Counted from the stretch's first letter, positions 20,380 to 24,672 are shown. The stretch: 64,000 bases of DNA from an uncultured Sulfolobales archaeon (GCA_938017505.1 CALIKV010000002.1:12742-76741), one strand, 5' to 3'. Notes: generated from the letters alone by a model not told the origin. A program made the numbers and translations.

Positions 20380-20730
20380 ATGCCAGTCACGCCTTCGCGA
20401 ATAAGCAGAGATGAGTTGATATCCTACTTAACATCCTACTCCTCCAGGGTCATGCCAGGGTTCCTCAACATACTTAACAAGCTTTTCACTAAGCAGTTCG
20501 GCACTGACATGATCGATCTTTTCTTGAACGACCCCCCCAAAGTCTACAACACGTTGCTGAACATGTACGGGAATGAGGATACCGCGACCTTAATCATAGC
20601 TTACCTTTTGGTTAAACCCATACTCATCAGGCTTGAGAGGCTTGACCTCATGGATAAGGCGATAGCGCTCGCTACCAAGGACCCAGACGGCTTCAAGAAA
20701 CTACTTAGATCACTGGATGTGGATCTATGA
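20380..20730 (+). CDS. Small helical protein (DUF3227/NitrOD5-like)
   Basis: PGFLNIL...DLFLNDPPKVYNTLLNMYGNEDTA pattern; family assignment from recollection. Confidence 0.65.
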   Translation: MPVTPSRISRDELISYLTSYSSRVMPGFLNILNKLFTKQFGTDMIDLFLNDPPKVYNTLLNMYGNEDTATLIIAYLLVKPILIRLERLDLMDKAIALATKDPDGFKKLLRSLDVDL

Positions 20731-20759
20731 CGGGACGGATTGTTGAACGCGATGCCGTT

Positions 20760-21176
20760 TTAACACTCAACAGTCGCCTTATTACCCACCCCCTCCTCCA
20801 CGGTCACGATTACTCGTTGGCTTATGTACGATTTCTTCAATTCACTACATATGTGAGTAGCCACGCATTCAGCCGTAACTAGAGTGCAGTCAAGGTCCTT
20901 CAGCTTAAGCGTGAAGGGCGCGTTGAACGTTATCTTCGTTAAGTCCTGTCTGGGAACTAGGAATGAGTAGTTGAAGCTCTTTATTAACTCCTCTGTAAAC
21001 TTCCTCAGCTCAATGAAATCAACGACCCAGAGAGGACCTGAAGGACCTTCTACGCAGACACTGACGCCGAATGTATGACCGTGAAGAAGCAGCTCCCCGT
21101 TCACTGGCGTGTAGTGAGCGGCGTTAAAATTCAAACCAGTGACGCAGTCCTTAATTAACCTCCCCTTTAAATTCAC
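20760..21176 (-). CDS. 6-pyruvoyl-tetrahydropterin synthase/QueD-like T-fold protein
   Basis: FNAAH, LHGHTF, VVDF, TAE; lacks the Cys normally upstream of HGH. Confidence 0.8.
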   Translation of the reverse strand: MNLKGRLIKDCVTGLNFNAAHYTPVNGELLLHGHTFGVSVCVEGPSGPLWVVDFIELRKFTEELIKSFNYSFLVPRQDLTKITFNAPFTLKLKDLDCTLVTAECVATHICSELKKSYISQRVIVTVEEGVGNKATVEC

Positions 21177-22254
21177 CGAAGATCCTCCTCAACTCATCGA
21201 CGTTCCACGACATTTTAGGCACGTACTCCACCCACCGCTTGTAGGGTAGGGTGAATTTCTTACCGAACTCCACGTTCAGAAGCCACATCTTATCCTTAAG
21301 AACCTCAAATCCGTATTCCCTCCCAGCACCCTCCAGAAACTCGACGAGGTATTTAACCATGGAGAATGGAATGACGAACTGGACTAAGCCTAGTCCCTGA
21401 TCCCTCCTGTAGCCGCAGGAAGCAACTGTTGGGTGTGTGGTCAGCGCCTCACATAAGCCCTTAATGACGGCAACGTCCCTAGATTTAACGCTGATGAGGA
21501 GGGACGTTCCCAGGGCCGCAGTGTAGATAGGGAGGGACATAAGTCTAATCCCCCTAATCAAGTAAGGCACGTGGTTCCTGGCATGCCTCCGTAGTTTCCC
21601 TACGGAGATGCCTAAAGCCTTAGCTACATCAACCTGCTTGACGAACGCGTCCTTCTCCAGCTCTTTAATAATACCAAGGTCTAAGGAGTCGAAAAACGTT
21701 TTCCCTATTTCCCTCCCCGACTCAGCCTCTTTACCCCGTGACTCAGTTATTACGTCCCCCACGAACTTCTTCAGCTTCCGGAAGGACTCCGTGCTGAATC
21801 CGCTCTCCGGCGAGAACGCCGACTCAATGCCGTATGTAGTGAAGGAGGTCTTATTCCTTAGCCTCTCATGGAACTCCATGACGACGGAGTTCTCAAGAGA
21901 CTTCAACGAGGCCGATAGATCTTCCATGTCCGTCGGTATGTAGAGAGAGTAGAAGCGCTTGTCAGGGAAAGCATACACCATCGCTCTAACGAACTTCATG
22001 AATTTGACTGAGGGTTCGGCGAGAAGGTCTTTATCCGTTATGATCACCACTAACTTAAGTCCCAGATTGCTCAGGGAGTAATCGACGGTGAAGTAGAAAT
22101 AGCTAGCTTTCAGCAGAGTGTTTATCCTAACTAGGGTGGATCTTAGATCCTCCCCCAGCAACTCAGCTAGCTCCTTAGCTATCTGGAACTTCCCAACAGT
22201 CCTTATCCCGTAGAGAGCCTCCAGGAATTCAGGCGTAATTAATTTCATGCCCAA
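21151..22254 (-). CDS. Double-HTH Lrp/AsnC-like transcriptional regulator
   Basis: N-terminal HTH plus VDYSLSNLGL linker; second HTH DSLDLGIIKELEKDAFVKQVDVAKALGIS. Confidence 0.72.
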   Translation of the reverse strand: MGMKLITPEFLEALYGIRTVGKFQIAKELAELLGEDLRSTLVRINTLLKASYFYFTVDYSLSNLGLKLVVIITDKDLLAEPSVKFMKFVRAMVYAFPDKRFYSLYIPTDMEDLSASLKSLENSVVMEFHERLRNKTSFTTYGIESAFSPESGFSTESFRKLKKFVGDVITESRGKEAESGREIGKTFFDSLDLGIIKELEKDAFVKQVDVAKALGISVGKLRRHARNHVPYLIRGIRLMSLPIYTAALGTSLLISVKSRDVAVIKGLCEALTTHPTVASCGYRRDQGLGLVQFVIPFSMVKYLVEFLEGAGREYGFEVLKDKMWLLNVEFGKKFTLPYKRWVEYVPKMSWNVDELRRIFGEFKGEVN

Positions 22255-22405
22255 CGACCGTGAGTTGGTTGATTTACCTCACTACAATAACTACAGCCTT
22301 AATTCTTATAAGGAGTTATGTGCATCAGCTACCATAACATGTTTTGTATATTATGAGAGTAAAGTTGAAGTTCTCTATTGCCGTTTATTTATCGGTGAAT
22401 ACATA

Positions 22406-22570
22406 GTGAAACCTGAAACAACCGTTAGGTTAGTTGAAATACTTGAGACCCTTAACAAGAATAGAAAGCTACTGTACGTAGCCGCGATCCTAGCTATAGC
22501 TCTAGCTAAGACCAAATTTGACGTGGGCATCCTCGGCGACGAGAACCCGCGTGATTGGGCCGTTCTCTAA
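22406..22570 (+). CDS. 54-aa peptide with a basic-hydrophobic leader and a GDENPRDWAVL tail
   Basis: GGTGA SD at 22394-22398, GTG start; sequence MKPETTVRLVEILETLNKNRKLLYVAAILAIALAKTKFDVGILGDENPRDWAVL. Confidence 0.7.
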   Translation: MKPETTVRLVEILETLNKNRKLLYVAAILAIALAKTKFDVGILGDENPRDWAVL

Positions 22571-22578
22571 GCTTAATC

Positions 22579-22803
22579 TCAGTTTTTAACCCTACTTAAT
22601 AGTAGTCTCGGTATTTCTTCGTTCTGATATATCTTCAGTAAAAGAGTCTTTAACGCTTCCTCCGCCGAACCGTTGTTTGACTCCAGCACTATTGTATCAA
22701 GGTCCTTCCCGTACGTCATCCTTGACATCGCGTTTAACATTGGAAGGAGACCTGGCACCACATTCTTCAACTCATTAAGGTTTATCCTACGACCCACTAC
22801 CAC
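22579..22803 (-). CDS. Small helical protein paralogous to 20380..20730
   Basis: VVPGLLPMLN..TYGKDL and LLKIYQNEE align with VMPGFLNILN..QFGTDM and LLNMYGNED. Confidence 0.65.
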   Translation of the reverse strand: MVVGRRINLNELKNVVPGLLPMLNAMSRMTYGKDLDTIVLESNNGSAEEALKTLLLKIYQNEEIPRLLLSRVKN

Positions 22804-22918
22804 ACCCCCAATAAGCTATACAGTAGTTAACGGCTTGTACGTTAGTGCGGGCTAGTAGGTAGTTTCATTGACAGTAAAGTTTATAATCCTTTTTAACATT
22901 AATTTTTTGTATAATTGA

Positions 22919-23419
22919 TTATGACCTACTGCTTTCCACGACCTTCCGCAGGACCATGAAGGTCTCAGTTGACTGTATCTCCTCTATTGAGGGTAGGTAC
23001 TTGAGTAGGTATCTTGAGAGTTCCTCCCAGTTCCTCACCCAGACCCTGAGGATTATGTCATACGCGCCAGTCACTATCACAGCTTCCTCCACGTAGGGTA
23101 GCTCCTCATTGTTCCTGGACTCACTAACCAGTTTGTTCGCTAGCTCAAGCTGGTCTAGCTTACCGATCAATCCCTTCCTGACTTTAACTGCTATGTACGC
23201 GTAGTAGTTATACCCTAGCGTCTCAGGCCTCACGCTAACTGTATACGCCTGTATAACACCGACGTCCTCGAGCTTCTTTATCCTCTGCACGACAGTGGTC
23301 CTAGGTCTCCCTAGCTTCCTAGCTATCTCGCTTGACTTCAGTCTCGAGTTCTTCTTCAGCAGCTCTATTATGCTTAGGTCTAGCTGGTCGATATCCGGTT
23401 TACTCCTTCTCACGTTCAT
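22919..23419 (-). CDS. Lrp/AsnC family transcriptional regulator
   Basis: DQLDLSIIELLKKNSR HTH, VTGAYDIIL, STETFMVL; ATGA overlap with the upstream gene. Confidence 0.92.
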   Translation of the reverse strand: MNVRRSKPDIDQLDLSIIELLKKNSRLKSSEIARKLGRPRTTVVQRIKKLEDVGVIQAYTVSVRPETLGYNYYAYIAVKVRKGLIGKLDQLELANKLVSESRNNEELPYVEEAVIVTGAYDIILRVWVRNWEELSRYLLKYLPSIEEIQSTETFMVLRKVVESSRS

Positions 23420-24672
23420 GGAGCCTCCACTACTCCGGGGGGCTTCGGGAACGGTGACGCTTCCCATATATACTTCAGCCTGAGTAAATATCTCGTGTAC
23501 CTCTCAACCCCAAGCCCGAAGCCTGCTGACGGGGCTATACCCGCCCTCACAGCGTCAAGGAACCAGGAATACTTGCTTATATCCTCCTTCAGCTCCTTCA
23601 ACCTCTTCACAATGAACTCATACCTATACTCCCTCTCACCGCCGTCTACGAGCTCCCCGAACCCATCAGGTAATATTAAGTTGAAGTCCCTGTTCTTACC
23701 TGCCTCCACTTCATCCAGCATGTAGTAGAAACCCCTACTCGCTGAAGGGAACTTAACCAGCCAGAAAGGCCTTCCAATCTCCACGCTTAAACGCTCCTCA
23801 GCTTCCTGAGGCAGTTCCTCCCTCTCACCGAAGTTGAAGCCGTGTTTCCTGACCCTCTCTACGGCCTCGCTGAACGTCATTCTCTCGTACGGTGGTTTAG
23901 GGCACTTCAGACCCGGGTTGAACTCGCCAACCACGTCCCCGGCCTCGCTGATCACGTCCTCGCAAGACTCGTAGACAAGCTTCTCGCCAAGCCTCATCAC
24001 ATCGTACATCGAAGCCCCCGCCCACTCTAAGTCCAGTTGAGTGAACTCTATTAAATGTCTTCCGGTCCTGAGGTTGTCAGGAGGCTCCTCCCTCACGTTC
24101 CTTGCGACGAAGTACATCTTCCCCAAGACCGACGCGATAACCTGCTTATACATTATAGTGCTTGAGGATAGTTCATAGGGCTTGTCATAAACAAGCGCCG
24201 TGACCTTCCTAGCCCCTCTTAAACCCGGATCACTAGCCACGCTTAAGACAGGCGGCAGTAGCTCGGTGAAGCCCTCAGAATCCAGGATATCCCTTAAACT
24301 CCTCAACAGTAGATGTTGAAACTTAATGACCTTTAAGTACCTCGGCGCCCTCACCCATACGTAGAAGTGCCTGGCAAACGAATCAGGCCTCGACGGGTCC
24401 AGGGCGGTGCAGCTTAAGGGTCTCTCACCAACGTTAAGAACCTCCACCACCCGGCCTTCAACCCCGTCAGAGAGCCTGACCTTAAGAAACACATCCCTGC
24501 CTGACCTAACCGCCTCTGAGACATAGCTACTCTGAAGCGAGTTGTCCAGCCTAACATCGATCAACTCGCCGCCAACACTAACCCGGATTAAGTGCTCGTC
24601 AACTACGTCAAGAACCCTCCCGACAACGAACCTGTCCGAACCCCCCGTCATCACCACCTGCAATGCCTCCAA
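23416..24672 (-). CDS. Archaeal asparagine synthetase A (AsnRS/AspRS-like catalytic domain)
   Basis: Class IIb motifs RNVREE, HLIEFTQLDLE, GGEREY, SAGFGLGVER; SDPGLRGA. Confidence 0.8.
   Translation of the reverse strand: MEALQVVMTGGSDRFVVGRVLDVVDEHLIRVSVGGELIDVRLDNSLQSSYVSEAVRSGRDVFLKVRLSDGVEGRVVEVLNVGERPLSCTALDPSRPDSFARHFYVWVRAPRYLKVIKFQHLLLRSLRDILDSEGFTELLPPVLSVASDPGLRGARKVTALVYDKPYELSSSTIMYKQVIASVLGKMYFVARNVREEPPDNLRTGRHLIEFTQLDLEWAGASMYDVMRLGEKLVYESCEDVISEAGDVVGEFNPGLKCPKPPYERMTFSEAVERVRKHGFNFGEREELPQEAEERLSVEIGRPFWLVKFPSASRGFYYMLDEVEAGKNRDFNLILPDGFGELVDGGEREYRYEFIVKRLKELKEDISKYSWFLDAVRAGIAPSAGFGLGVERYTRYLLRLKYIWEASPFPKPPGVVEAP

Follow-up and report, generated by a model that had tools for sequence, protein, structure and literature searches.

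A 54-codon gene for a small peptide with a basic-hydrophobic leader and an acidic tail lies beside a tandem Lrp/AsnC-like regulator in the window (the whole 64,000-nucleotide stretch of DNA from an uncultured Sulfolobales archaeon analysed here), a pairing that is kept in different families and in four gene layouts. The tail of the peptide is quite probably the regulator's ligand, and we lean slightly towards reading the two genes together as an exported, trimmed and re-imported signal that is sensed by the double-Lrp regulator. A first-pass annotation of this DNA had proposed such a peptide-regulator pair. Adjacency, tails that track regulator clades and a complex model speak for that core idea, while its two additions, a cut after Gly and control of the adjacent pilus genes, found no support.

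A small peptide gene divergent from a tandem-Lrp regulator

The features of the pair are as follows.

22394..22398 (+): Shine-Dalgarno GGTGA of the peptide gene, kept in the alignment
22406..22570 (+): 54-aa propeptide gene, with an amphipathic/basic n-region (residues 1-21), a 13-aa hydrophobic core (22-34), a short spacer and a C-terminal 11-mer
22535..22567 (+): codons of G44-L54, an 11-mer conserved at the C-terminus and the predicted ligand, from the tail census and the complex-model contacts
21151..22254 (-): tandem Lrp/AsnC-like protein (HTH-RAM-HTH-RAM), predicted peptide receptor and transcription factor

Read from the sequence, a GTG start at 22406 opens a 54-aa ORF that runs through 22570 on the plus strand. 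The ORF is kept beside the regulator in 7 of the 9 other genomes of the genus, at 63-94% identity. In one of the two exceptions (G009) the regulator lies only 52 nt from the contig end; in the other (G007) the regulator was not found either, nor were the QueD gene and the orthologue of the neighbouring Lrp gene, so that this genome was uninformative as a test of co-loss. Across the 8 genus copies, pN/pS (Nei-Gojobori) is 0.27 for codons 2-33 and 0.125 for the last 14 codons. The 54-codon ORF is a real gene under purifying selection. The first-pass annotation had preferred this reading, with its Shine-Dalgarno sequence, to the 107-aa ORF of the annotation track (22247..22570), and conservation, pN/pS and the stops in relatives bear it out; the longer ORF was rejected, its 53 extra codons holding stops in 7 of 7 relatives. 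A Shine-Dalgarno-like word was observed ahead of 60 of 77 peptides, compared with 201 of 979 other short ORFs at the same loci.

The anatomy described earlier is also seen in the sequence: an amphipathic N-part, a basic patch (K18-K21), a hydrophobic core at residues 22-34 that ends in A-L-A (32-34), and an acidic tail, with the amphipathicity being moderate (maximum hydrophobic moment 0.54). In a single-sequence model the N-part is a helix, almost unbroken to residue 41. All named homologues of the peptide are annotated as hypothetical or uncharacterized, and close homologues of the regulator and the peptide are labelled Zestosphaera sp. and Desulfurococcaceae/Desulfurococcales. Phage records and viral contigs returned no match, and an atlas look-up with the peptide gave an uninformative 0.75.

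The regulator gene is divergent from the peptide gene, with 151 nt between them. We consider a start at ATG 22248 (365 aa, the length of P0001) likelier than the 367-aa reading. Pfam detects the second HTH only; the structure model (pLDDT 84.5) has the order HTH-RAM-linker-HTH-RAM, which identifies the "large non-HTH domains" of the first reading as RAM domains, the ligand-binding part of Lrp/AsnC proteins. Both HTH modules and the gap of about 150 bp reported at first pass are confirmed. The Lrp/AsnC arrangement of an N-terminal winged HTH and a C-terminal RAM domain thus occurs twice in the chain. Profile matches of the second half to Lrp/AsnC reach E 6e-10, and comparison with Lrp/AsnC structures gives Z 6-7. 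The best whole-length fold match is the siroheme decarboxylase NirDL (Foldseek E 8.9e-9; Z 13.2, rmsd 5.0, 279 aligned), and by fold comparison the regulator shares the tandem or heterodimeric HTH-RAM fold of NirDL/AhbAB. The AhbB family model gave no match to the regulator gene, and neither AhbA nor AhbB appeared in the family scan. H-x-Y-x-R, the catalytic motif of siroheme decarboxylases, was found in only 2 of 103 regulator homologues. The best-conserved regulator columns are mostly in the second HTH, outside the pocket. In the atlas look-up, the regulator had look-alikes at 0.90-0.94 in archaeal clusters, every one of them named either "hypothetical" or Lrp/AsnC; recognition was below the tool's mark.

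A second tandem-Lrp paralogue (G000 C6:116520-117533) has no adjacent peptide and belongs to a peptide-less clade. Judged by their N-termini, the genes that follow it resemble those for phosphoglycerate kinase and GAPDH.

Conservation of the pairing in Thermoproteota

We inspected 142 full-length regulator homologues in Thermoproteota and found an adjacent peptide gene at 78, its product combining a hydrophobic core with a tail rich in Gly, Pro and Asp. The other 64 have none, 7 of them with less than 300 nt of upstream sequence. In the tree, whole regulator clades are without peptides, including that of the genome's second paralogue. A regulator profile built from 24 sequences matched 100 of 251 genomes of the order (E<=1e-12) and 133 of 401 genomes of the phylum (E<=1e-8), some of these matches being single-domain Lrp proteins. 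It matched none in four families (0/29, 0/14, 0/6 and 0/38 genomes), and a contig scan with one distant regulator as query returned none.

The first 77 pairs comprise 49 divergent, 15 tandem peptide-first, 9 convergent and 4 tandem regulator-first layouts, and the distance between the two genes is at most 400 nt in 69 of them. Other neighbours of the pair change freely between loci. Given the four layouts and the changing neighbours, the linkage of peptide and regulator outlasts rearrangement.

A strict rule-based filter placed a peptide within 450 nt of just 8 of 58 non-training regulators. Because many distant tails had first been chosen by eye, before profiles were available, two less circular tests were run. 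Starting from the peptide, a 23-peptide profile searched against 251 genomes gave 68 matches: 20 training copies, 20 in long ORFs, 1 duplicate fragment and 27 new short ORFs. A tandem-Lrp gene was found within ~1.3 kb of 23 of the 27 new ORFs, one of these genes being matched only weakly and in part, at the end of its contig; the other four ORFs, where none was found, are L122 (on a 1.8-kb contig), L141, L143 and L149. Starting from the regulator, a peptide scored above 10 bits at 16 of 40 newly fetched loci, a test that is partly dependent, as the broader profile held close relatives of some loci. The same score was reached by 0 and 1 of 10,403 short ORFs of the window's own genome with the two profiles. 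The 24 misses include members of a peptide-less clade and loci cut by contig ends. By inspection and in both tests, then, regulator homologues were found with adjacent peptide ORFs, as the first-pass annotation had expected.

Several loci depart from the common arrangement. Two peptide-like ORFs (L141:3007-3150 and L149:2897-3175) have no tandem-Lrp gene within 3 kb; they come from the family in which the regulator profile matched 0 of 29 genomes, the L141 ORF adjoins a NitrOD5-like gene, and it is possible that both are orphans or partners of a divergent receptor. In one clade (L051, L028, L053, L136, L152, L240, L243, L244) the peptide lies ~1.0-1.2 kb from the regulator, and at the loci scanned a NUDIX gene and a small unknown ORF sit between the two. 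Convergent with the peptide gene in two genera (L019:652-1095, L024:642-1064) is an ORF with a class III (pilin-type) signal-like N-terminus and no Pfam match. Upstream of three peptide-less regulators (L020-L022) a putative divergent ORF of 31-34 codons is kept in three genomes; it lies in a stretch where DNA identity is 79%, and it lacks a hydrophobic core.

Tail motif and cognate pairing

Anchored at the C-terminus, the tails share an 11-mer of the form G-D-x-x-P-x-D-x-x-x-hydrophobic, which G44-L54 of the window fits. Counted from the C-terminus of 77 peptides, Gly stands at -11 in 40, Asp at -10 in 28, Pro at -7 in 33, Asp at -5 in 46, and Phe, Leu, Ile or Val at -1 in 52. The Gly is invariant in 23 of 23 aligned peptides and is the most conserved tail residue. 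The spacer between the hydrophobic core and the motif ranges from 0 to dozens of residues. Since the motif is end-anchored while spacer length varies, the constrained unit is the C-terminal segment and not the leader. These observations lend no support to the earlier proposal that the tail is released after Gly: this residue belongs to the motif, and in the complex model it touches the regulator.

Within each of four genomes (G480, G463, G474 and G577), paralogous regulators are 27-34% identical and each has its own tail; across the same genomes, orthologous regulators are 70-86% identical and share tails. In the tree, tails follow regulator clades. The co-variation of tail and regulator that had been suggested as a check was therefore seen in part: tails track clades, but the correlation (Spearman 0.24 over 2,926 non-independent pairs) is confounded by kinship, and kinship alone accounts for part of the agreement between tails and clades.

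At two loci, larger secreted-looking proteins with a Pro/Gly tail occupy the peptide's position (L091:3590-4012, 140 aa; L099:3675-3920, 81 aa), which suggests that the tail can ride on a folded domain.

Predicted binding of the tail between the RAM domains

The regulator was modelled with peptide residues 25-54, using custom alignments and three runs. The complex scored 0.89, compared with 0.03 for the best of 3 controls, which include no non-cognate tail. The score mark is reached by 116 of 157 solved pairs and 2 of 215 mismatched pairs, counts that apply only roughly to custom alignments. At least 77% of contacts are common to the runs, with a partner pLDDT of only 58-67. In the model only peptide residues 40-54 touch the regulator, and the pocket that holds them lies between its two RAM domains. 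A52-L54 lie between the two RAM sheets (regulator residues 68, 91, 101, 103, 278, 279 and 292) with the C-terminal hydrophobic residue deepest, G44/D45 rest on residues 334-335 of a conserved F-T-L-P-Y strand (334-338), and N47 contacts K201 of the second HTH. T335 and P337 are present in 48 and 51 of 62 peptide-linked regulators, yet also in 16 and 37 of 41 others, and most other pocket positions are poorly conserved among regulators. No solved Lrp-peptide complex is among the fold matches; NirDL shows a large ligand pocket in the same fold. Modelling of regulator and tail, another check proposed at first pass, thus gave a score far above its controls; the model supports the predicted binding of the tail and is no proof of it.

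Proposed mechanism and rival explanations

In the reading that we favour, the peptide would be exported by Sec and cut for the first time after A34 by signal peptidase I, a housekeeping protease would trim it to the tail, and an oligopeptide ABC transporter would bring the tail back into the cell. There its last ~11 residues would settle between the two RAM domains of the regulator, their predicted binding site, with allosteric coupling possibly passing through helix 197-201 of the second HTH, and the peptide-bound regulator may then switch transcription of nearby genes, namely from the peptide's own promoter and of the NitrOD5-like gene described below. By established rules, an ending of the A-L-A type is a signal peptidase I site; the A-L-A at 32-34 fits such a site and is kept by some homologues, not all. 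The genome has 3 signal peptidase I matches, at least 3 M50 protease matches and 6 SBP_bac_5 (oligopeptide-type binding protein) matches, so that housekeeping machinery is present, although presence alone shows no use by the peptide. CPBP had no match in the window's 82%-complete genome. No dedicated protease or transporter recurs beside the pair among the 123 of 162 listed neighbours that were scanned.

It is also conceivable, though unlikely, that the peptide is the regulator's ligand and never passes between cells, being tethered to the membrane or released intracellularly, where it would report the status of secretion or of a membrane protease, or sequester the regulator. The complex model fits this equally well, the long amphipathic n-region and the core form the nearly continuous modelled helix described above, and neither a dedicated importer nor a dedicated protease lies near the pair. 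By the positive-inside rule, however, basic residues ahead of a hydrophobic core place the tail outside the cell, and 52 of 62 peptides have such residues. The core is also short for an anchor (13 residues here, median 15), and in several distant members a classical short signal peptide is combined with a long pro-region. We regard as improbable the reading in which the peptide is a mere regulated target, a small secreted or surface product, with the regulator sensing a small molecule and the complex model being a false pass. Regulators often adjoin their own targets, 64 of the 142 homologues are without a peptide, and amino-acid-sensing Lrp/AsnC proteins are among the close matches in sequence and fold; yet the pair is kept without a shared promoter in convergent and tandem layouts, tails differ by paralogue, and the complex score is far above controls.

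Two further explanations seem very improbable. In one, the tandem-Lrp protein would be no receptor and instead a NirDL/AhbAB-like enzyme that modifies the acidic tail of a RiPP-type precursor. That the best whole-length fold match is an enzyme, and that the tail enters the inter-RAM pocket in the model, would suit it; the missing AhbA/AhbB match, the near absence of the catalytic motif, conservation that peaks mostly in the second HTH rather than in the pocket, and the lack of tailoring genes among the neighbours scanned argue against it. In the other, the module would control the adjacent type IV pilus operon, as the first-pass annotation had suggested. A TadC-like pilus gene does follow the module in the window's genome and in 7 other members of the genus, in a cluster with UpsA/UpsB-like pilins (under the cut-off), and a pilin-like gene and a pilus ATPase match lie near one distant locus (L099). 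However, adjacency holds in most of the genus only: the 18-20 kb taken on the two sides of the pair hold no pilus genes in G004, of the same genus, or in G010. A pilus ATPase match was found near just 1 of 69 pairs outside the genus, and neither conserved box was found ahead of the pilus genes.

Neighbouring genes and candidate targets

The features that surround the pair are listed below.

20380..20730 (+): second NitrOD5-like small protein (Pfam NitrOD5 E 5.7e-4, 20.4 bits, cut-off 27)
20760..21176 (-): QueD/PTPS-family gene (PTPS E 8e-12), overlapping the 3' end of the regulator gene
22343..22368 (+): TTTGTATAWT and AGTAAAGTT, two conserved blocks of the intergenic region, putatively promoter elements, an operator or both
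22579..22803 (-): gene for a small NitrOD5-like protein, with conserved boxes ahead of it; a candidate target or output gene
22873..22915 (-): promoter region of the NitrOD5-like gene, with a conserved TATA-AACTTTACT block and an inverted TTTGTATAAT block

The small ORFs on either side belong to one homology cluster, and the pair is thus bracketed by two paralogous small proteins and a QueD-like gene, as had been noted. Pfam PF11537 did not match 22579-22803. The QueD-like gene was found near just 2 of 69 pairs outside the genus; it is a local neighbour, not one that the module generally includes. Of 77 pairs, 19 from several families have a NitrOD5-like gene nearby. Ten of these 19 do not belong to the nine closest loci, and five of the ten had served as seeds for the profile used. 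The peptide gene and the NitrOD5-like gene at 22579-22803 are both preceded by two conserved DNA blocks. Because the blocks precede both genes and NitrOD5-like genes recur near pairs, this gene is the best target candidate, and NitrOD5-like genes are better candidates than the pilus genes.

The two-block motif occurs once in the window, and genome-wide only the peptide promoter scores high. For TWTAAWCYTTACT, 32 sites were listed in 10 genomes, and the NitrOD5-like gene alone recurs downstream of them; the reversed control, a word without a TATA box, gave 3. TTTGTATAWT showed no genome-wide enrichment over controls. The shorter TTGTATAWT has 12 matches in the genome, three of them within 2.5 kb here (22343, 22906 and 24816, +), and in G000, G004 and G010 it also stands ahead of a nicotinamidase-like gene. 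AGTAAAG is more simply read as a BRE, and the conserved blocks may be plain BRE/TATA elements. With the boxes not enriched genome-wide and one of them also standing before the nicotinamidase-like gene, we claim no operator or regulon.

In G000 and G006 the NitrOD5-like gene at 20380-20730 has the opposite orientation to that in most of the other genus members. Beyond the module, an Asparagine synthetase A-like gene (23416-24672, -; a score of 320 bits, which is under the cut-off, and ~97 extra N-terminal residues) overlaps a single-domain Lrp/AsnC gene (22919-23467, -), and in three genera the two accompany the module.

Relation to known systems

The RRNPP(A) peptide-receptor systems of Bacillota and their phages include Rgg/SHP, ComR/ComS, PlcR/PapR, NprR/NprX, Rap/Phr and AimR/AimP. 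The pair described here is predicted to resemble them in having a tiny gene, with a basic-hydrophobic leader and a C-terminal active peptide, that adjoins its cognate cytoplasmic regulator, and in having paralogue-specific peptides that would rely on housekeeping export, proteases and import. A gene for a putatively exported propeptide, judged by its leader anatomy, adjoins the regulator at the 78 of 142 loci counted above. Unlike RRNPP(A) receptors, the regulator has two RAM and two HTH domains in an alpha/beta fold, and the TPR domain is absent. The pair is moreover archaeal, has an acidic Gly/Pro/Asp tail of ~11 residues, shows no sequence match to those systems, and is known from sequence and models. 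With RRNPP-like logic and unrelated parts, it would be new at the molecular level.

Each half of the regulator is an HTH-RAM unit like those of Lrp/AsnC proteins such as P. furiosus LrpA (1i1g), PH0140 (9w4v), PH1519 and the S. tokodaii protein 2e7w. Here, in contrast, two units are fused in a chain of 330-430 aa, and the predicted ligand is a gene-encoded peptide and not an amino acid. With NirDL/AhbAB (4ch7, 4czc) the regulator shares the tandem HTH-RAM architecture and the large pocket between RAM domains, but identity is 14-15%, the AhbB match and the catalytic motif are missing, and no haem-pathway genes are among the neighbours scanned. AhbA/B are themselves annotated as Lrp/AsnC-family regulators (PMC3942049). 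The flanking small proteins weakly match NitrOD5 (PF11537), an archaeal response-regulator output domain, although they fall below the Pfam cut-off and are stand-alone. According to PMC5847659, NitrOD5 is an output domain that is stand-alone or REC-fused; the same paper reports that no two-component systems were found in finished genomes of this lineage.

We found no description of this peptide/double-Lrp pair in a literature search run without supplements or subscription journals. A 2019 mBio survey, which reportedly covers archaeal antimicrobial peptides and conflict systems, could mention the family. We give even chances to the broadest reading, that of a phylum-wide, independently evolved form of archaeal peptide communication with fused double-Lrp intracellular receptors, secreted 11-residue acidic peptides and paralogue-specific "dialects". 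If true, Thermoproteota without two-component systems could sense kin density in this way, and the pair would represent an undescribed archaeal peptide-signalling system as well as a new ligand class for the Lrp fold. Cultured carriers include Staphylothermus marinus (WP_169696943.1), S. hellenicus (ADI32384.1) and Ignisphaera aggregans (Igag_1119), all annotated as "hypothetical protein"; given a named receptor, an 11-residue candidate ligand and these carriers, one recombinant protein and a synthetic peptide are enough to put archaeal peptide signalling to the test.
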